From Candidatus Omnitrophota bacterium (lineage in GTDB: Bacteria > Omnitrophota > Gorgyraeia > Duberdicusellales > 4484-171), in NCBI GenBank assembly GCA_016935525.1, contig JAFGQU010000016.1, forward strand, positions 32,342 to 96,341: DNA of 64,000 nt, written 5' to 3'. The position numbers and the translations under genes are program-made. This document shows positions 7,216 through 35,741 of this stretch, piece after piece. The notes under the pieces were generated by a model. It made no database searches, was not told where the DNA came from, and was given only the letters and a program-made list of their open reading frames with translations. The number at the start of each line of letters is the position of its first letter. Position 1 is the stretch's first letter.

Positions 7216-9666
7216 ATGAATAGGAGATCAAAAAATATCAGAATAGGTGTGAAAATATTTATTTTCGCGGTAGTGATCATCAGTATCGCCGGTATCCATC
7301 CGGTCTTGTGCGCCGATAAAGGCGAAGAAGCGTTTTATGTCGCGGAAAAAGCGTATATGGATAAGTTTTACCAGGCCAGCGGTACTCTGTTTGAAAAGTT
7401 TATTCAGGATTTCCCGCAAAACAACCGGGTCGTGACGGCCCAGCTGTATATCGCTAAATCGCTCTATTTTCAGGAACAGTACGTGAAAGCGCTGAATATG
7501 TTAGAACAGTTAAAACGTGACCCGAAAGCGAAAAGTATCGCCGATCAGGTCGATTATTGGTTAGGACAGGTATCGTTCCAGGGGAAAAATTTTACCCAGG
7601 CGCTCGAATATGCCCAGAAGATCGTCGATACTTATCCTGATTCGCCGCTACGGGGATGGGGATATTATCTTGCCGCGGAATGTTATGCCCAGTTAGGCGA
7701 ATATGATGAAAGTGAAAAAACGCTTAAACTGATCCTGGACGAAAGTCAGGACCAGAAACTTATCGAAAAAGCCGTCCTGGACCTCCTTGAGACGTATTAT
7801 GTCCAGCAAAACTATACCGCGCTCGTGAGTGAAGCCGAACGGTTAGAGGAGCGCCTGGTGACCGATGAAGCGAAATCGCAGTTATTGTTTTATAAAGGCG
7901 AAGGCCTGTACGGCCGGGGAGATTTTGCGTTAGCAAAAGAAGTATTTGAGAAAGGGTTGAAATTCTCATCCGCAGAGAACCTGACCGACCTCTATTTACA
8001 GCGGTTAGGCGATTGCCTGTTCGCTCTGGGGAATGCCGCGCAGGCGAAACTCCAGTACGATAAGATAACGTCTTCCGAGATCAGCAGTTATTCGTTTGTC
8101 ACCTATTATCGTAACCTGAAACAGTGCCAGGATGTGCTTTCAAAAAGCGCGGACTTTATTGCCGGGTTTCCTTACAGTAAATATGTCCCCCAGGTATATC
8201 TTTATCAAGCCGATTGTCTGTATGAGACCGGCCGGATCCAGGATGCGCTCGGTATATATCAGAAGATCCTTACCGAACTGAGTGATTCCTCACCCCGTAA
8301 CGTCATCGATCAGGCTCATTACGGCCTGGCCTGGTGTTACCTGAAAATAGGAGAGTTCAAAAAAGCGATCGACGAGTTCAAAAATACCATCCAGTTTACG
8401 GCTAATTCGATCGTACGGATAAGTTCTCAGATCCAGATCGCCGACGCGTACCAGGAAAAAGAGATGCATGAAGCGGCGCTCCAGACCTATAACCAGATCC
8501 TTAAAGAATACCCTAATAACGTGTATTCCGATTATATCCAGTTCCAGATCGGGATGATCTTTCTCAGGAACGACCGGCTGGAAGAGGCGAAGTTCAGTTT
8601 TAAGAATTTAGAGAAAAACTTTCCTGAATCGAAATTGATCCCGCAGGCCCGTTATTATCTTGCCGCGAGCTATTTTTCCGAAGGGAACTATCCGGCCGCT
8701 CAGGATATTCTCGATGATTTTCCTAAAGATTTTCCCGGGAATAACCTCAGTGATCGGGCGCGGTATCTTTACGGGAAATGCGAGTTTAATCAGGGTAAAT
8801 ATAATGATGCGTTGGATATTTTTCAGAACCTTATTAAAACTACCGTCGATAACGAACTGAAACAGGTGATATGGATCGATACCGCGTACGTGTATATCAA
8901 TCTTAATAAATATGACCAGGCAAAAAACACGCTCGGGGAGTTTACCCAGCGGTTTAAACGGTCCCGTTACCTGCCTTCGGTACTGCTTAATCTCGGCAGC
9001 CTGTATGAACGGGAACGCGACCCGGTGAAAGCGAAAAAATATTATACCGAGATCGTCGAGAACTATTCCGGTCATTCGCTGATGTATGAGGCGAAACTCG
9101 CGTTAGCCCATCTGTCCTGGCAGGAAGGCGATCTGACCGGTGCCAAAAAATATCTTCAGGAATTGATCAACAGCACCAATACGACCGCGAAACAACGGGC
9201 GACTCTTTCTCTGGCGGATATCTACGCTCAAAACGGCGATACCCAGGAAGCGTTTAAACTTTATGAAGAACTGATCAAACTGGACGGGAACTTCAGTAAA
9301 GCGGCCCTGGCAAAAAAAGGGATGTTACTTAAAGAGACGAACCGTTACGCCGAAGCCGTGACTACTATCCGCCGGGCCCTTGAACGCGGGATAAAAGACC
9401 CGCAACTGCATTTCGCGTTAGGGTATTCTCTGGAAAAGATGAATGCCGCCAAAGAGGCGCTCGCGGAATATTTTAAGATCATATATCTTTATGATGAACT
9501 CAAGTATAAAGTAAAAGCGTATTTCCGTATTGCCAAGATCTACGAAGATCAGAACCGCCTGGTCCAGGCCCGGGAGATGTATGAAAAGGTCATCGGCTTA
9601 AACGCGGAAGAGGCGAAGATCGCGAAGTTAAGGATCGAAGAGATAGATACACAGTTGGGGAAATAA
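7216..9666 (+). CDS. Secreted/periplasmic TPR-repeat protein (YbgF/Tol-Pal-associated type)
   Basis: 816 aa; N-terminal signal/TM IFIFAVVIISIAG; many TPR-like helical repeats; sits upstream of exbB-exbD. Confidence 0.65.
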   Translation: MNRRSKNIRIGVKIFIFAVVIISIAGIHPVLCADKGEEAFYVAEKAYMDKFYQASGTLFEKFIQDFPQNNRVVTAQLYIAKSLYFQEQYVKALNMLEQLKRDPKAKSIADQVDYWLGQVSFQGKNFTQALEYAQKIVDTYPDSPLRGWGYYLAAECYAQLGEYDESEKTLKLILDESQDQKLIEKAVLDLLETYYVQQNYTALVSEAERLEERLVTDEAKSQLLFYKGEGLYGRGDFALAKEVFEKGLKFSSAENLTDLYLQRLGDCLFALGNAAQAKLQYDKITSSEISSYSFVTYYRNLKQCQDVLSKSADFIAGFPYSKYVPQVYLYQADCLYETGRIQDALGIYQKILTELSDSSPRNVIDQAHYGLAWCYLKIGEFKKAIDEFKNTIQFTANSIVRISSQIQIADAYQEKEMHEAALQTYNQILKEYPNNVYSDYIQFQIGMIFLRNDRLEEAKFSFKNLEKNFPESKLIPQARYYLAASYFSEGNYPAAQDILDDFPKDFPGNNLSDRARYLYGKCEFNQGKYNDALDIFQNLIKTTVDNELKQVIWIDTAYVYINLNKYDQAKNTLGEFTQRFKRSRYLPSVLLNLGSLYERERDPVKAKKYYTEIVENYSGHSLMYEAKLALAHLSWQEGDLTGAKKYLQELINSTNTTAKQRATLSLADIYAQNGDTQEAFKLYEELIKLDGNFSKAALAKKGMLLKETNRYAEAVTTIRRALERGIKDPQLHFALGYSLEKMNAAKEALAEYFKIIYLYDELKYKVKAYFRIAKIYEDQNRLVQAREMYEKVIGLNAEEAKIAKLRIEEIDTQLGK

Positions 9667-9689
9667 ATATGAATATAGAAATATGTTCA

Positions 9690-9835
9690 CTTACGCTCGC
9701 GAAATACGCCCACAGGGCGAAATAAGTGGCACTTCGTGCCACGAAATACAATTGTATTTCGCGGAGTGAAACGGAGCATATTTCACGAGTGTAGCGAGTA
9801 TATTTCGCAAAACGAAGTGCAGCATATTTCTATAT
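9690..9835. repeat. ~150-nt palindromic GAAATAC/GTATTTCG repeat element, copy 1
   Basis: Centre is a perfect 18-bp palindrome gaaatacaattgtatttc (9743-9760), with an adjacent hairpin gtggcac-ttc-gtgccac; the left arm carries cgaaatac repeats and the right arm tatttcgc repeats; homologous to 33285-33435. Confidence 0.65.
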
Positions 9836-9857: not shown

Positions 9858-10490
9858 ATGGTAGAGTTGATTATTAAAGGCGGATGGTTGATGGCTCCGA
9901 TCATTTTGAGTTCGGTGCTTTCTTTGACGATCATGATCGAACGGTTTATCTGTTTTGTCCGTATCCGGCTTAATGTGACGGAACTGCTGAACGAGATCTT
10001 CAGTTATGTCAAAAAGAACCGGATCAAAGAAGCGATAGACCTGTGCGTCAAGAATCCTTCGTATCTTACCAATATCCTGAAAGCCGGCTTGTTTCATTAC
10101 GACCAGTCTAAAGAAATAGTGAAAGAGTCGATGGAAAACGCTTCGTTATATGAAGTGCCCCGGCTGGAAAAGAACCTTAATTTTTTAAGTACCCTGGCGC
10201 ATATTACTCCGCTTCTGGGGCTTCTGGGGACGGTCGTGGGGTTGGTGAAATGTTTTGTGGTCATCGAGCAGAAAGCGATCAGCGTGGGGGTCGTGAACCC
10301 TTCGGATCTGGCCGGAGGGATATGGGAAGCGCTGCTTACTACCGCGGCCGGGCTATGTGTGGCGATCCCTACGTTTTTAGCGTACAATTATTTCGTCCAT
10401 AAGGTGAATATGTATATACTCGCGGCCGAACGGGCAAGCACGGAATTATTGGAAGTGCTTGCCGAAAGAAGTTATAGCAATGAAATTTAA
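9858..10490 (+). CDS. exbB: MotA/TolQ/ExbB proton-channel family protein
   Basis: Three TM segments; LSTLAHITPLLGLLGTVVGLVKCF is the family core; strong SD aaggagg upstream. Confidence 0.85.
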   Translation: MVELIIKGGWLMAPIILSSVLSLTIMIERFICFVRIRLNVTELLNEIFSYVKKNRIKEAIDLCVKNPSYLTNILKAGLFHYDQSKEIVKESMENASLYEVPRLEKNLNFLSTLAHITPLLGLLGTVVGLVKCFVVIEQKAISVGVVNPSDLAGGIWEALLTTAAGLCVAIPTFLAYNYFVHKVNMYILAAERASTELLEVLAERSYSNEI

Positions 10491-20060: not shown

Positions 20061-20477
20061 ATGAGAAAAGGGTTTACGCTTATAGAATTATTGATCGTAG
20101 TTATCGTTATTGCTATCTTAGCCACGTTTGCTATCCCCCAATATATGAAAGCGGTAGAACGGGCAAAAGTATCGAAAGGCGCGCATCATATAGGACTTAT
20201 TGCTCAGGCAATGAAGATGTATCGTGCCGATACGGATGAATATCCCGATGCCAGTACCGGAGATTTCGGCGATACGTTCGTAGATTACGTTGAACTGAAT
20301 GAAATCGATAATGATAGTGATTGGGATTATACGGTGACCGGAGATGCTAACGGAGAGACCTTTACTATCACCGCAGATAGAACGGCCGGCCCTTATGCCG
20401 GACAGGTTCTTGAAATAAATGAGATGGGTGAATGGGACAATTCCGATCACCTTTTGTTCCGTATCCCCGGTGAATAA
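20061..20477 (+). CDS. Type IV pilin / pseudopilin (GspG-like), class III signal
   Basis: MRKG|FTLIELLIVVIVIAILATFAIPQY prepilin cleavage/methylation motif with Glu+5; SD aaggagg. Confidence 0.8.
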   Translation: MRKGFTLIELLIVVIVIAILATFAIPQYMKAVERAKVSKGAHHIGLIAQAMKMYRADTDEYPDASTGDFGDTFVDYVELNEIDNDSDWDYTVTGDANGETFTITADRTAGPYAGQVLEINEMGEWDNSDHLLFRIPGE

Positions 20478-25695: not shown

Positions 25696-26424
25696 ATGTC
25701 ACGGGTGCGTATTTTTCAAGCCTTACCGGCGATAGAGGATACTCTGCGGATCAGGGATATCGAGATCGTCCGGAAGATAAAGACCGTGTTACGGATGGAA
25801 CCGGGAGAGATCCTTTTCGTGTTTGACGGGGAAGGAAAAGAGTTCTCTTATACGGTCGAGACGATAAGTAAAAAAGAGCTCGTGTTACAAAAAAAAGGAT
25901 TGGTACGCCAGGAAAAAATACAACCGTTTTTGCTCGTCCTTGCCGTTCCGCTTCTGCGTGATGTAAAAATGGAATTTATCCTGCAGAAAACCTGCGAATT
26001 GGGAGTGACCCGTATTATCCCTTATATTTCTGCCCGCGGCACGGTACGCAAGGCGCCTTCGGCGGCAAAGAGCGCGCGGTGGATGAAAATAGTCACCGAA
26101 GCTGCCCGGCAATCGGAACGGCTCTGGATACCAAAGGTGGATCCCATACGTTCGGTAGAAGAAGTCGCGATAGAGCCGGCTGAACTGAAAATAGTCGCGC
26201 ATCAAACCGGAGATACGCGTGTCGGCTTGGTTCAGGAGAAAAAGCCGAACACGGCGCTGGTGATCGTCGGCCCGGAAGGAGATTTTTCCGAACACGAGTT
26301 GCAATTGTTTAAAGAGAACCGGTTCCATCCGCTATCTCTTTCTCAACAAATATTACGTACCGAGACCGCGGCAATATTCGCGGTGGGACTGATACGCTAC
26401 CTTGAGACAGCGTATAGCGGTTAG
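25696..26424 (+). CDS. rsmE: 16S rRNA (uracil1498-N3)-methyltransferase
   Basis: 242 aa; RsmE architecture with PUA-like N-terminus and SPOUT C-terminus (VIVGPEGDFSEHE). Confidence 0.75.
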   Translation: MSRVRIFQALPAIEDTLRIRDIEIVRKIKTVLRMEPGEILFVFDGEGKEFSYTVETISKKELVLQKKGLVRQEKIQPFLLVLAVPLLRDVKMEFILQKTCELGVTRIIPYISARGTVRKAPSAAKSARWMKIVTEAARQSERLWIPKVDPIRSVEEVAIEPAELKIVAHQTGDTRVGLVQEKKPNTALVIVGPEGDFSEHELQLFKENRFHPLSLSQQILRTETAAIFAVGLIRYLETAYSG

Positions 26425-26606
26425 CGGTGAGAGGATAGAGTGAAGAGAATTAGCAATGTCCAATTAGCAATTATCAGTTAGCAATGAGAGAAAGAATAGG
26501 GAGAGAAACTCCGGATTTTAAATTGCTAATTGCTAAATGCTAATTTTGCATTGATCATTTATATTAAACGTGTGATCGGCTTGTTTTCACCTGCGCGGCG
26601 GAGGTA

Positions 26607-27884
26607 ATGAAGAATATGATGAGAGAGAATAAGGCAAAATTGAAGGTAAAGTTTGTGACGCTCGGGTGTAAAGTGAACCAGTATGAGACTCAAGTGTTAC
26701 GGGAGGATTGCGCGCGTCACGGGATGGATGTGACCGAAGAGGCCGCCGATATCTATGTGATCAATACCTGTAGCGTTACCCATCGTGCCGATCGTAAGTC
26801 GCGGGATGCGATTGTACAGGCCCGGCGGGAAAATCCGAACAGTAAGATCGCCGCGGTCGGATGTCTGGCCGAACTGAACCGGGATATGCTCAAACGATTG
26901 GATGTTGAGTATATCCTCGGCCAACATGAAAAATATTCGTTAGGTAACGTGTTGGCCGGAGGCGAGATAAGCGAGATGTCGCCCTGGTCGTTTTCGGTAA
27001 CCTCAAGTGGTAATCACCGGGCGTTTGTAAAGGTCCAGGACGGGTGTGATAATCTTTGTTCGTTCTGTAAAATACCTCATTTGCGCGGCCGGTCACGAAG
27101 CCGGCCGATAGATGATATCATCGCCGAGATCGAACGGATAGAAGAGGATCATCACGAGATCGTTCTCTGCGGAGTCAATCTCAGCCTTTACGGGAAAGAT
27201 CTCTCGCCGGCACAGGACCTGTCGGGTCTGGTCGCTTGTTGTCTGGAAAGAAAGAGGCTCGGCCGGTTGAGGATAAGTTCTCTGGAATCGTTATACCTGG
27301 ATGAATCGTTATTACGGGTTTTGATTCACCCGCGGTTTTGTCCGCATCTTCATCTTTGTTTTCAAAGCGGCGATGACCGGGTCTTACGCGCGATGAATAA
27401 AAAGGAAACAGTTTCCCAGTACCGCGATCTTATCGCTCGAGCGAGAAAAGTAAACCCTGATGTAGCGATCAGCGGCGATATTATCGTAGGCTTTCCCGAA
27501 GAAGACGAAAAAAGTTTTAAAAATACTTTTGATTTCCTTAAGGAGATCAAACCCATGCGGCTGCATATATTTCGTTTCTCGCCGCGGGAAAAAACCGTCT
27601 TTGCCGGAATGCGTCCGGGTAACGGGAAAAAGATAAAAATCCGGTATACGGTATTAAAGGCCGCAGCCCAGAGGTGGTCTTTAGAATATAGCCGCCGGTT
27701 CGAAAACCGTCGGGTAGATGTTATTACCGAAGGGAAAAACGGCGACTATTTTTACGGGTATTCTCAGCATTATGTGCGGGTGCATTTTACCGGTGATGCC
27801 CGGTTAGGTGAAATTACCAAAGTAAAAGTTACCCAGATAAATCAGAAAGGCGTATTCGGGGAATCAATTAAGGAAAAATCCTAA
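26607..27884 (+). CDS. mtaB: Radical-SAM methylthiotransferase, MtaB-like (MiaB/RimO family)
   Basis: MTTase N-domain TLGCKVNQYETQ; radical SAM motif CDNLCSFCKIP; C-terminal TRAM-like domain. Confidence 0.8.
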   Translation: MKNMMRENKAKLKVKFVTLGCKVNQYETQVLREDCARHGMDVTEEAADIYVINTCSVTHRADRKSRDAIVQARRENPNSKIAAVGCLAELNRDMLKRLDVEYILGQHEKYSLGNVLAGGEISEMSPWSFSVTSSGNHRAFVKVQDGCDNLCSFCKIPHLRGRSRSRPIDDIIAEIERIEEDHHEIVLCGVNLSLYGKDLSPAQDLSGLVACCLERKRLGRLRISSLESLYLDESLLRVLIHPRFCPHLHLCFQSGDDRVLRAMNKKETVSQYRDLIARARKVNPDVAISGDIIVGFPEEDEKSFKNTFDFLKEIKPMRLHIFRFSPREKTVFAGMRPGNGKKIKIRYTVLKAAAQRWSLEYSRRFENRRVDVITEGKNGDYFYGYSQHYVRVHFTGDARLGEITKVKVTQINQKGVFGESIKEKS

Positions 27885-27996
27885 ACTCTAAGCACTAAAT
27901 TCTAAACAAATCCAAAGCTCTAAATTCAAAACAGGTATTCGTTCTCAAAATTAGGATTTAGGATTTGTTTTGGATTTAGAATTTAGGGTTTTTAAT

Positions 27997-30515: not shown

Positions 30516-32354
30516 ATGAAATATTCTGTCGCCCGTGTCGTGTTTAATCTTGGGGTGGATAAAGCGTTCGATTATCGTATCGGCTCCGGCCAGCATATCT
30601 TACCCGGTATGCGCGTATGGGTAGAGCTGAACGGCCGCGGGCGTATGGGAGTCGTGACTAAACTTCTCGGCCGTACTCAGCGCCGGGGGTTAAACCCGGT
30701 CCTGGAAATATTGGATGCCGCCCCTACCCTTTCTGAAGCTCAACTTGATTTTGCCTGCTATCTCACTCGTTATTATCCTTATCCTCTGGGAGAATTCTTA
30801 TTTATGATGATCCCGCGTAAATTAAAAGTCAGGAAAACCCGGTTTGAACCGCAAGAGACAATGATACACGCTTGTGTTCCGCGAAAAGGAGAAAACCGTT
30901 CACGGGTCACCTATATCCAGGCCGGTTTGTTAAAAGAGCGTATTGAAGCTTACCGCCGGTATATCCGGGAAGCTCTGAAAGAAGGGTCGGTGATCCTCAC
31001 GGTGCCGTTGGTGGCGACTCTTAAATATCTGCGCAAAGAGCTTGCGGGCGAGTTCAAAGATATGGTCGTCCTTTCCAGCTATCAACGCGATAACGAGATG
31101 TATTTTTCCTGGCAACACGCGCATTCTCAAAAAAAACTGATCTTGAGTACCCGGTTGGGACTGTTTCTTTTTCCGGCCGATGTGCGTCTTGTTATTGTGG
31201 AGGATGAAAGTAATAGCCATTACTTTTCTCAGGAGAAACCTTACTATTATTTCATCGATATTGCCCGGTATCTTAAGGAATGCCGGGGTATCGATCTTGT
31301 TGTCGGGTTCGATTATCCTTCATTGGAAACGTATAAATCAATAAAAGAAAAACAGGGCAATCCCGAGATCATCAGGATCCCTTTTGATTTGTGCGCGACG
31401 GAAATCATCTCGACGTTAAGTTTCTTTACTAAAAAGAAAGGGTTCCATTTTAACAATCTGTTTTTAGAATTGGTCCGTAAAAACCTCGATGAGCAGAAAC
31501 GGGTGCTTATCCTTTATAACCGGCGGGGATATGCGACGTTACTCAAATGTTCACAATGCGGCCATGTATACCGTTGTAAACGTTGTGAAAGCGTGCTGAA
31601 ATTTTCGGCCGCGGCCGACGAACAGAAAGGGGTCTGCCCGTTTTGTCATTACCAGGAAGATATCCCGAAAGTGTGTCCTCAATGTAATTCCGGATATATC
31701 CGGACCCTAGGGCTGGGAATAGAACGGTTGGAATCACATCTTAAAAAAGCTTTCCCGCAGCATAAGGTCGGTCTGGTTTCGCCGTCGGTTCCCCGGGATG
31801 CCGAAATCCTGGTAAGTACGTATGGGGTGCTCGACGGGCCCTATTTAGAGGCCAATAGGCCGGACGCGGTGTTTGTCTTGGACAGTGACCATTCTCTTGT
31901 CCGGATCGATTTCGAAGCGACCTTGCAGTTATATATCTATTTGCGCCGGTTGGCTGCGTATACGCGCACGCGGGTGTATATCTTTACGCTCAATAGAGAT
32001 CATTATGTGTGGGAAACATTATCGGATGAGTCCGATGTCTTTTACCTGGCCGAAAGCCGTCTGCGCAACCAGGCTCATTTACCGCCTTATTGTCATTTTG
32101 CCAAGATCTCGTTACGGGGCCGGGATGAGAAGAGGCTTTTCATCGGTGCCAATACAGTATACAATAAACTACATGACAACCCTCAATTAGAAGTGTACGG
32201 CCCGATTACGGATGTGCCGTTTAAACTGAGGGGTTATTTTTATTATTCGGTTATTGTAAAATCCAAACAGAAGGCCCCTTTATATCAGGCGGTCGAGGAG
32301 ATCACGAAACATTCACGAAGTAAAGCAACAAGGATAGCAGTCCAATTACGATGA
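30516..32354 (+). CDS. priA: Primosomal protein N' (PriA) homologue with degenerate ATPase motifs
   Basis: The N-terminal 3'-DNA-binding domain and the helicase-core segments (VIVEDESNSHYF, LILSTRLGLF) align with PriA; Cys-rich zinc-binding insert CSQCGHVYRCKRC ... CPFC ... CPQC present; the Walker A GxGKT is absent. Confidence 0.65.
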   Translation: MKYSVARVVFNLGVDKAFDYRIGSGQHILPGMRVWVELNGRGRMGVVTKLLGRTQRRGLNPVLEILDAAPTLSEAQLDFACYLTRYYPYPLGEFLFMMIPRKLKVRKTRFEPQETMIHACVPRKGENRSRVTYIQAGLLKERIEAYRRYIREALKEGSVILTVPLVATLKYLRKELAGEFKDMVVLSSYQRDNEMYFSWQHAHSQKKLILSTRLGLFLFPADVRLVIVEDESNSHYFSQEKPYYYFIDIARYLKECRGIDLVVGFDYPSLETYKSIKEKQGNPEIIRIPFDLCATEIISTLSFFTKKKGFHFNNLFLELVRKNLDEQKRVLILYNRRGYATLLKCSQCGHVYRCKRCESVLKFSAAADEQKGVCPFCHYQEDIPKVCPQCNSGYIRTLGLGIERLESHLKKAFPQHKVGLVSPSVPRDAEILVSTYGVLDGPYLEANRPDAVFVLDSDHSLVRIDFEATLQLYIYLRRLAAYTRTRVYIFTLNRDHYVWETLSDESDVFYLAESRLRNQAHLPPYCHFAKISLRGRDEKRLFIGANTVYNKLHDNPQLEVYGPITDVPFKLRGYFYYSVIVKSKQKAPLYQAVEEITKHSRSKATRIAVQLR

Positions 32355-33280
32355 GATTCGTTTACTTTGGTACTTCACAATTTGCTGCCGATTTTCTGAA
32401 ATTGCTTTGCGATAAAAACATTATACCGGAATTAGTAGTCAGCACTCCCGATGTCCACTCGGGAAGAGGGCTGAAACTGCAGAGTTCTCCGGTAAAATCG
32501 TGTGCCGCCGAAAAAGAGATACCCTGTATTACCCCTCAAGACCTGTCGGATCCCCGCTGTACCAAGAAGATACAGGATCTAGGAGCCGACCTCTTTGTCG
32601 TGGTCAGTTACGGCAAGCTTATTCCGCACAAGATGCTGTCTTCGGCGGGCAAATTCCCGTTAGGCGTTCATCCTTCTCTGCTTCCCCGCCTACGGGGCGC
32701 GGCTCCTATCCAGTGGTCGTTGATCAACGGCGAAGCAGTGACCGGAGTGACGGTCTTTGTGATCGACGAAAAAATAGACTCAGGCCCTATTTTAGTGCAG
32801 GAAAAACTGGTTATTCATAAAGACGACGACTATTTTTCTTTATGCCGGCGGCTCGTCGCTTTAGGCGTAGAATGTATCGTAGGGGCATTGCGACTGCTTT
32901 CTTCAGAGAAATATGAGCTTATCGAACAGGATAAAGCTCAGAGTACCTATTCCCGTAAATTGAAGAAATCCGACGGTAAGATCAATTGGCGAAAACGCGC
33001 GAAAGATATTGTCAATCTTATCCGCGGCACAAAAGAATGGCCCGGCGCGTATACGTTTCATAAAGGTAAACCGATCAAGATCATTCAGGCTGTAGAGGCT
33101 CAAAGCTGCGAATGCCCGCCGTCACCGGGTATCATCACGGTGAAAGAGGGGATGCTGTATGTACGGGCCGGCGATATCGCGGTCGCGGTCCTTAGGCTTA
33201 AACCGGCCGGGAAAAAAGAGATGCCGGCGGAAAGTTTTCTTAACGGATATAGAGTCAAAACGGGAGACCGTTTTGAATAA
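32351..33280 (+). CDS. fmt: Methionyl-tRNA formyltransferase
   Basis: Formyl_trans_N plus C-terminal domain; HPSLLPRLRGAAPIQWSLING motif. Confidence 0.85.
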   Translation: MRFVYFGTSQFAADFLKLLCDKNIIPELVVSTPDVHSGRGLKLQSSPVKSCAAEKEIPCITPQDLSDPRCTKKIQDLGADLFVVVSYGKLIPHKMLSSAGKFPLGVHPSLLPRLRGAAPIQWSLINGEAVTGVTVFVIDEKIDSGPILVQEKLVIHKDDDYFSLCRRLVALGVECIVGALRLLSSEKYELIEQDKAQSTYSRKLKKSDGKINWRKRAKDIVNLIRGTKEWPGAYTFHKGKPIKIIQAVEAQSCECPPSPGIITVKEGMLYVRAGDIAVAVLRLKPAGKKEMPAESFLNGYRVKTGDRFE

Positions 33281-33284
33281 ATCC

Positions 33285-33435
33285 GAAGCGCGAAAGAGCT
33301 TTAGAAAAATGCAGTCGAAATACGATAGAAATACATGGAAATACAATCGTATTTCACGCAGCATCAGCGGAGTGTATTTCGTGTAGCGTAGCGAAACATA
33401 TTTCGCGAAGTAGAACGAAGCATATTTCAGTAAAG
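33285..33435. repeat. ~150-nt palindromic GAAATAC/GTATTTCG repeat element, copy 2
   Basis: Central gaaatacaatcgtatttc (33339-33356); same arm composition as 9690-9835. Confidence 0.65.
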
Positions 33436-33439
33436 CGAT

Positions 33440-35741
<2,302 letters not shown>

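Follow-up and report, generated by a model that had tools for sequence, protein, structure and literature searches.

Convergent repeat-array palindromes in operon spacers of an Omnitrophota genome as possible gene-less relatives of rRNA intervening-sequence cassettes

The protein family PF05635 is known mainly from open reading frames (ORFs) in the intervening sequences (IVSs) of ribosomal RNA (rRNA) genes and from Avd, the accessory protein of diversity-generating retroelements, and the protein is pentameric. PF05635 ORFs also occur in rRNA insertions of Candidate Phyla Radiation (CPR) bacteria. The Coxiella IVS has been described as a selfish element in 23S rRNA in which the S23p (PF05635) ORF lies in the loop of a terminal 28-bp stem; 3-4 tandem heptamers of variable copy number stand directly before the ATG, and RNase III cuts the element out (PMC4990558). 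Older proposals regarded IVSs as transposition remnants or mobile elements, with function and origin called unclear, and over 25 years since IVSs were discovered it is still described as unclear where they and the conserved ORF come from and what they do (PMC4990558). PF05635 genes have also been reported between cmr3 and cmr2 (PMC3936711). Here we describe two palindromic elements, built from GAAATAC units and their inverse, in a 64-kb stretch of a Candidatus Omnitrophota genome (contig JAFGQU010000016.1; this whole stretch is called the window below). Copy 1 lies between the gene for a tetratricopeptide repeat (TPR) protein and exbB, and copy 2 lies between fmt and acyP. We lean toward reading both as gene-less elements, either remnants of a selfish cassette of the IVS type or its non-autonomous relatives, rather than as host regulatory sites.

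The window elements and the wider repeat family to which they belong share several features with the rRNA IVSs of Leptospira, Coxiella, Salmonella and CPR bacteria. Complementary bordering sequences form a long stable stem, as they do in both window copies. There is an ORF-bearing form, with a PF05635 four-helix-bundle gene in the loop and variable short tandem repeats before the ATG, and there are also ORF-less forms, with a patchy distribution that suggests horizontal spread. Unlike rRNA IVSs, the window elements lie between protein-coding genes and not in a 23S or 16S rRNA helix, they contain no PF05635 ORF, their stems are made of 10-11-bp units, and RNase III excision would apply to them only by analogy.

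A second comparison is with Gut-1 (Rfam RF01706), an orphan candidate small RNA represented only by human-gut sequences (Weinberg et al., 2010). In copy 1, the left arm (9697-9777) can be aligned with Gut-1 along the full length of the model, and this arm alone shares with Gut-1 the repeated (G)UGAAAU units with short GC-rich hairpins between them, some with UUCG-type loops. However, copy 1 scores 21.5 bits where the gathering score is 50, and neither copy 2 nor eight other family loci gave a match. At gathering thresholds, an Rfam search of the window returned only a tRNA; searches by E-value returned the sub-threshold Gut-1 match together with generic microRNA-precursor hairpin matches. The published Gut-1 alignment with flanks (PMC2864571, supplement) has inverse units (AUAUCAC plus hairpins) downstream in several representatives, and for this reason we take Gut-1 to be a single arm of a convergent array. 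The element in the window does not belong to Gut-1, but Gut-1 and this element class are probably cousins. Elsewhere in the window, a hairpin at 2115-2140 (ATATCACACC-TACGA-GGTGTGATAT) contains GTGATAT/ATATCAC, a unit also present in alignments of Gut-1.

The repetitive extragenic palindromes (REPs) of Proteobacteria, with their composite forms BIME and REPIN, are likewise short, interspersed extragenic palindromes that lie downstream of genes, between co-directional or convergent neighbours, and inverted pairs of them can form larger hairpins. The family described here differs from them in lacking a GTAG-headed 20-40-nt REP unit and a recurrent RAYT/Y1 transposase, and its arms are arrays of 11-bp units. 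A Y1_Tnp gene was found only in locus L222, with a weak match in L146; the L222 gene (5665-6387, IS200/RAYT-like) lies 2.3 kb from a PF05635 cassette and does not recur in other loci. The window elements did not qualify as a miniature inverted-repeat transposable element (MITE), an rRNA IVS, Gut-1 or REP. We file them as an IVS-type hairpin cassette outside rRNA. In the literature, searches by the repeat strings and by relevant term combinations found no published description of a spacer-borne array family of this kind.

We are confident that the element, and the family, are real. An earlier interpretation made from the letters of the window (the sequence-only reading) had proposed two palindromic elements of GAAATAC and inverse units, and both are present. 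They are the only sites in the window with at least four GAAATA/TATTTC hexamers per 200 bp, and the densest site holds nine, compared with a mean maximum of 2.75 and a top value of 5 in 300 order-2 Markov simulations. For the dyad pattern, 0.04 matches are expected by chance. The 18-bp dyad of copy 1 is perfect, as had been read, and the near-perfect dyad of copy 2, which differs from that of copy 1 at one position, was correctly recognized but placed one base off, at 33339-33356. The spans also needed revision. Copy 1 had been given as 9690-9835; its end stands, but the outermost inverted pair (9673-9685 with 9823-9835, complementary at 13/13 positions) sets the start 17 bp further left. For copy 2, given as 33285-33435, the outer pairing (33298-33310 with 33424-33436) leads to the bounds in Table 1. 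A further plus-strand GAAATA at 9660 overlaps the TPR stop codon, bringing the copy 1 total to five.

Each element can fold into the long imperfect hairpin that the sequence-only reading had envisaged: the predicted RNA fold of copy 1 has an energy of -68.4 kcal/mol (z -9.3) and that of copy 2 has -38.9 kcal/mol (z -3.0). The minus strands fold about as well as the plus strands. The small hairpin with a TTC loop noted within copy 1 was located between two left-arm units, and Pfam bore out the identity of all four neighbouring genes, each on the plus strand. The mean column identity between the copies is 60%, and what they have in common is the short units and one filler module. A scan limited to sigma-70-like sites found no promoter in either element, and neither holds a terminator-like site on the plus strand. 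The exbB ribosome-binding site, AAGGAGG, lies just outside the copy 1 palindrome. The acyP ATG stands 4 nt beyond the base of copy 2, and at this distance a side effect of the hairpin on acyP translation is possible.

Table 1. Coordinates of the window elements, their parts and neighbouring genes, and state of the TPR-exbB spacer in the window and in relatives
Feature	Position or spacer	Strand	Details
Element copy 1, convergent array palindrome	9673..9835		TPR-exbB spacer; outer inverted pair and RNA fold
Copy 1 left arm	9678..9749	+	GAAATA at 9678, 9701, 9719, 9743; spacing 23, 18, 24
Copy 1 filler hairpin CGCCC-ACA-GGGCG	9707..9719	+	between two left-arm units; aligns to Gut-1 model hairpin
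Copy 1 filler hairpin GTGGCAC-TTC-GTGCCAC	9726..9742	+	between two left-arm units
Copy 1 central dyad GAAATACAATTGTATTTC	9743..9760		perfect 18 bp, 0 mismatches
Copy 1 right arm	9755..9830	+	TATTTC at 9755, 9779, 9801, 9825; spacing 24, 22, 24
Copy 1 module ATATTTC-ACGAGTGTAGCGAGT-ATATTTC, 29 nt	9778..9806	+	two units 22 bp apart flanking filler RCGAGYGWAGCGAGY
TPR-repeat protein, upstream neighbour of copy 1	7216..9666	+	Pfam
ExbB (MotA_ExbB), downstream neighbour of copy 1	9858..10490	+	Pfam
Element copy 2, convergent array palindrome, shortened left arm	33298..33436		fmt-acyP spacer; outer pairing and RNA fold
Copy 2 left arm	33317..33343	+	GAAATA at 33317, 33328, 33338; spacing 11, 10
Copy 2 central dyad GAAATACAATCGTATTTC	33338..33355		1 mismatch to copy 1
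Copy 2 right arm	33350..33428	+	TATTTC at 33350, 33375, 33399, 33423; spacing 25, 24, 24
Methionyl-tRNA formyltransferase (Fmt), upstream neighbour of copy 2	32351..33280	+	Pfam
Acylphosphatase (acyP), downstream neighbour of copy 2	33440..33712	+	Pfam
Window, ExbB 100%	TPR-exbB spacer 191 bp		holds copy 1
L227, ExbB 88%	TPR-exbB spacer 166 bp		different palindrome, CCAATAACC / GGTTATTGG type units
L230, ExbB 80%	contig end 80 bp upstream of exbB		element remnant with family-type filler hairpin
L228, ExbB 76%	TPR-exbB spacer 51 bp		no element
L229, ExbB 72%	TPR-exbB spacer 25 bp		no element

The two copies belong to a family found well beyond this genome. A dyad scan of one genome per species returned 81 loci, mostly chance matches, about 15 of which carry extra flanking GAAATAC units outside the search pattern; these fall under five or six phylum-level labels. 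Among them are Omnitrophota loci (L007, L010, L048, L059 and L082), one Saccharibacteria genome with six dyad matches, five of them with extra flanking units, another Patescibacteria metagenome-assembled genome (MAG), and contigs labelled Gammaproteobacteria and Bacteroidales. An Elusimicrobia MAG has two dyad matches and another copy nearby. L082 and L048 are treated as another Omnitrophota MAG, the junction test against the window being ambiguous and the GC content different. About 28 further arrays of the convergent type came from metagenomes, which were scanned for three units in a row.

Unit statistics were drawn from a pool of 45 convergent elements with 300 units. The consensus is GAAATACARTN, and left-arm units and inverse right-arm units converge on the dyad. 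Outside the expression that defined the unit, a T at +9 (83% of the 300 units) and an A at +7 (66%) are conserved. Spacings between units of the same orientation are mostly 11 bp (n=118), 10 bp (n=45) or 22 bp (n=11), with small clusters at ~30-35 bp, and arms hold 3-15 of these 10-11-bp units across the family. The window copies are a double-spaced variety, in which units 22-25 bp apart have filler between them; compact 10-11-bp spacing is seen in the window in the left arm of copy 2 only. Fillers are of two types, small GC-rich hairpins (two in copy 1, and elsewhere with UUCG or GAAA loops) and the motif RCGAGYGWAGCGAGY, which is also found in both elements of L222. The units stand one, two or three helical turns apart, and either small hairpins rich in GC or the motif CGAGCGAAGCGAGC take up the extra turns. 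In the Omnitrophota loci L007, L010 and L133 the 29-nt module recurs nearly unchanged, which makes copy 1 homologous, and not just analogous, to other Omnitrophota elements.

Two other arrangements were noted. In Saccharibacteria CAZHIA01 (L065, L077 and L078), 3-4 TTGACAAAAT-like decamers precede the GAAATAC arrays, as if the repeat were larger and composite, or as if a module resembling a promoter were joined to one arm. In L048 (480-4100), every spacer of a polysaccharide-export cluster holds a ~250-bp imperfect palindrome built from GAAATAAATAGAAATAAAAACC... / ...GGTTTGATTTTGTATTTC, with three near-identical copies ~1.1 kb apart.

The connection to PF05635 was first seen in a comparison of L130 with L172, where a sense GAAATAC array runs up to the ATG of a 130-aa ORF and an inverse array follows directly after its stop codon. 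Homologues in L099, L148, L135 and L207 have the same layout, and for the incomplete gene of L171 the upstream array alone is visible. The ORFs between the arrays match PF05635 (23S_rRNA_IVP) with E-values of 1e-20 to 1e-22, as well as TIGR02436, "four helix bundle protein". All seven PF05635 genes in the pattern-retrieved loci (L130, L172, L099, L148, L135, L207 and L171) adjoin arrays, and two of these genes, those of L135 and L207, are a long way from the pattern match by which their locus was retrieved.

As a control for retrieval bias, homologues were fetched by protein identity alone, which gave seven genes (L215, two in L218, L221, L222, L223 and L225). Every one of the seven lies inside an operon (cox, atp and others) in the same orientation as both neighbours; cassette sites include the COX2-COX1 spacer and the one that separates the genes for the beta and epsilon subunits of ATP synthase. 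Five of the seven have clear GAAAY units on their upstream side and RTTTC units on their downstream side, the L215 gene is flanked by GATAT-type units instead, and some of these cassettes share fillers with window-type elements. The remaining one of the seven, a more distant PF05635/bAvd-like gene (L218 450-812), has units of the CGTAT/AATACG type, with CGTATWG upstream and CGCAATAC downstream, a period of ~8-9 bp and a duplex z of -7.9, a hint that unit flavour may track protein subfamily. The oriented motif is in excess around PF05635 genes compared to 22 neighbouring genes (Mann-Whitney p 0.0018), and the upstream/downstream duplex z of the protein-fetched cassettes spans -0.2 to -11.6, where the controls average -0.6. 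Taking both retrievals, a PF05635 ORF lies between equivalent arms in L099, L148, L130, L172 and L222 to L225.

L222 brings the gene-less and gene-bearing forms together. Its atpG-atpD spacer holds a gene-less element and the next spacer, atpD-atpC, holds a PF05635 cassette; the arms of the two match unit for unit, with filler at the same position (ACGAGCGAAGCGAGC vs GCGAGCAAGGCGAGC). Because arms and filler match, we consider the gene-less and gene-bearing forms to be one family, and we think it likely that the window elements are kin to PF05635 cassettes. Regarding the protein itself, a sequence search of the PDB with a PF05635 protein gave no match at E 0.001. The idea that PF05635 belongs to HEPN was dropped, as a survey of HEPN does not mention the family.

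These observations lead to a possible way of working. In the full-length form, a small PF05635/TIGR02436 gene, putatively lacking a promoter of its own, lies between the arms and is co-oriented with the host operon around it. This form matches the build of the ORF-bearing rRNA IVS, with its ORF in the loop, long stem and tandem repeats before the ATG, and this is the basis for reading the window elements as IVS derivatives. Given the absence of promoter and terminator signals in the scans above, and given that PF05635 cassettes are always co-oriented and apparently without their own promoters, the window elements would be co-transcribed with TPR-exbB and fmt-acyP. The transcript may then fold into a long imperfect hairpin, which RNase III could cut, by analogy with rRNA IVSs. 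Such cutting would make insertions tolerable both in rRNA and in tight operons. We propose this RNase III-dependent selfish mechanism tentatively. What the 11-bp units do is a matter for speculation: we favour the possibility that the four-helix-bundle protein of the cassette recognizes them in trans, but they could instead be homology patches that allow cassettes to be exchanged between sites by recombination.

Several observations weigh against the IVS-type reading. A search of the window with the PF05635 HMM found no such ORF. The protein-fetched PF05635 genes carry a slightly different unit (GAAATT/GAAAC) from the GAAATAC of the window, and a matrix built from their units puts the two window loci joint first with one unrelated region. 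Since the pattern GTATTTC was used to retrieve loci, the GAAATAC flavour of the pattern-found PF05635 flanks is not independent evidence, although the presence of a gene between the arms is independent. The direction of events could also be the reverse, with the gene inserting preferentially into existing palindromes. As for action at the RNA level, RNase III cleavage is inferred by analogy, and the sense strand has no advantage: a comparison of sense and antisense duplex energy in 13 cassettes slightly favours antisense (Wilcoxon p 0.12), the gene-less elements that fold better as sense number 7 and those as antisense 4, and cassette arms have no bias in G-U content. A constraint at the DNA level therefore fits at least as well. 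UUCG or GAAA loops on the sense strand of several filler hairpins are an RNA-like feature, seen in a handful of cases.

This DNA-level constraint is the core of an alternative in which the arrays are helically phased DNA-binding sites, with a protein (the four-helix-bundle pentamer or a host protein) coating one face of the duplex and serving the host in, for example, nucleoid organisation, pairing, or as a barrier between transcription units. Such sites are known from type II plasmid centromeres, where parC has helically phased repeats of ~10-11 bp to either side of a centre. The family resembles parC-like iteron arrays in its ~10-11-bp helically phased repeats around a centre, but sits in chromosomal operon spacers, has mutually inverted arms, and has no partition genes nearby (TPR, ExbB/ExbD, Fmt and AcyP are the neighbours in the window). 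The spacings of 10-11 bp and their multiples, the information-rich 11-mer conserved across phyla, and the strand-symmetric complementarity of the arms, free of G-U bias, all fit binding to DNA. However, PF05635 is the only recurrent neighbour gene, and simple coating has no need for a convergent arrangement. The slot between TPR and exbB is empty in close relatives, and in another relative, as in other spacers of the window, palindromes of quite different units are found, so that no single protein can serve all. We consider a host binding-site role unlikely.

The turnover that counts against a host role is best seen in this same slot. The UvrA-TPR-ExbB-ExbD synteny is kept in relatives whereas the TPR-exbB spacer varies (Table 1), and in four relatives the element upstream of exbB is absent or replaced. 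In the closest of these, L227 (2835-3000), a ~130-bp palindrome of unrelated units stands between flanks ATATGAATA ... AAATTAAGGAGG that are the same as those of the window, and either replacement or very fast concerted turnover would account for it. For the fmt-acyP slot, the closest Fmt homologue found is only 47% identical, which makes the slot not comparable among relatives. Turnover shows at other loci as well: between L010 and L133 (80-89% protein identity), the element is kept and the difference is exactly one 11-bp unit; a whole arm has been gained or lost between L130 and L172 (60-78% identity); and L058 has 11 perfect tandem units. This gain and loss of elements and turnover of units indicate that the elements are unstable over short evolutionary times, and are not conserved regulatory sites.

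The same instability would be expected if the elements were neutral by-products of replication, with slippage expanding AT-rich units and template switching at hairpins making or keeping the palindrome, and with no mobility, partner protein or function. The variable unit numbers, such as the tandem units of L058 and the one-unit indel between L010 and L133, and the presence of several unrelated unit flavours in one window would both follow. Such a process leaves unexplained why the same 11-mer and a 15-16-nt filler recur across phyla and genomes, and why PF05635 genes lie between such arms; we regard it, too, as an improbable account.

A classical MITE origin, in which internally deleted copies of an insertion sequence are moved in trans by cut-and-paste, is less probable still. 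The likeness to MITEs drawn in the sequence-only reading holds only loosely: like MITEs, the elements are small, non-coding, palindromic and interspersed, they occur in many genomes and phyla, and they resemble a gene-bearing element minus its gene. They are also present or absent at an orthologous slot (the 191-bp TPR-exbB spacer here, against 51 and 25 bp in L228 and L229), and they break assemblies, with Logan short-read contigs ending in the exbB-upstream slot of L230 and, for L002, exactly in the copy 2 dyad (window position 33346). Unlike MITEs, copies are not near-identical; the two in the window share only short units and a filler module. Their ends differ, with no terminal inverted repeat beyond the units, and inspection of the flanks of copies 1 and 2 found no direct repeat that would mark a target-site duplication. 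The TATA at the ends of copy 1 belongs to the palindrome itself, and the empty sites of L228 and L229 are too diverged to align. Nor was a transposase partner found: all-against-all BLASTP of 336 flanking ORFs from the 45 elements recovered only the synteny of related genomes, no transposase recurs near these elements, and the single Y1 transposase is not recurrent. Viral contigs and plasmids are essentially free of the family. In viral contigs, the 11 matches to three consecutive GTATTTC units are all unrelated simple tandem repeats, and the PF05635 profile found one distant relative there and none in PLSDB plasmids.

The genomic setting speaks against the remaining proposal, that the elements are a large operator with many half-sites, by which exbB and acyP come under the joint control of a dimeric or oligomeric regulator. 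Regulation by metals is frequent among ExbB operons, and both copies end 4-28 nt ahead of a gene start, as an operator might; but neither element has a sigma-70-like promoter site, the neighbours of the 45 elements are unrelated genes, the element upstream of exbB is not conserved in relatives, and among the 20 family members with both neighbours called, 14 lie between co-directional genes, six between convergent gene ends and none between divergent genes (a probability of ~0.04 if, by our estimate, divergent spacers make up ~15% of sites), so that the operator reading is largely refuted and very unlikely to be right. Fur boxes, parS, DnaA boxes, Mu/Tn7 end repeats and DNA-uptake sequences were considered as well, and the sequences do not match.

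Returning to the IVS-type cassette, a wider version can be formulated, about which we are doubtful: PF05635 genes may be widespread promoter-less selfish cassettes in operon spacers and rRNA of at least five phyla, with arms bound by their own pentameric protein, and the window palindromes and Gut-1 may be non-autonomous derivatives. Should cassettes of this build, along with gene-less derivatives, prove common in ordinary operons, IVSs would be just one of the places where a broader selfish element lands, the four-helix-bundle protein would gain a candidate nucleic-acid target in the 11-bp unit, and the orphan Gut-1 motif would gain a context. If such a class of PF05635 selfish cassettes exists, rRNA IVSs would gain an origin and a testable mechanism of mobility or maintenance. 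There are practical consequences as well, since short-read assemblies of Omnitrophota and CPR genomes break at the arrays, which could be misannotated as regulatory sites or small-RNA genes.

The window contains further repeats of other kinds. An intergenic convergent palindrome at 26448-26545, between plus-strand ORFs 25696..26424 and 26607..27884, has three copies of ATTAGCAAT, a ~40-bp centre and three copies of ATTGCTAA. Directly after the second of these ORFs, a third array flavour is found at 27883-27991, where five CTAAAY units face four (G)ATTTAG units; GATTTAG units are also present in the exbB-upstream remnant of L230 (1-50). A pilin gene in the type IV pilus/type II secretion cluster (window ~20061-20477; L001 15593-16009) has a weak precomputed match to ComP_DUS; the idea that the repeats are DNA-uptake sequences was dropped. 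Finally, the motif TGTGACTATGTGWC occurs six times in the window (0.02 expected), at 2219, 3237, 3358, 4227 (minus strand), 4311 and 28005, each time shortly upstream of a gene start; it may be part of promoters or operators and has no connection with the palindromes.

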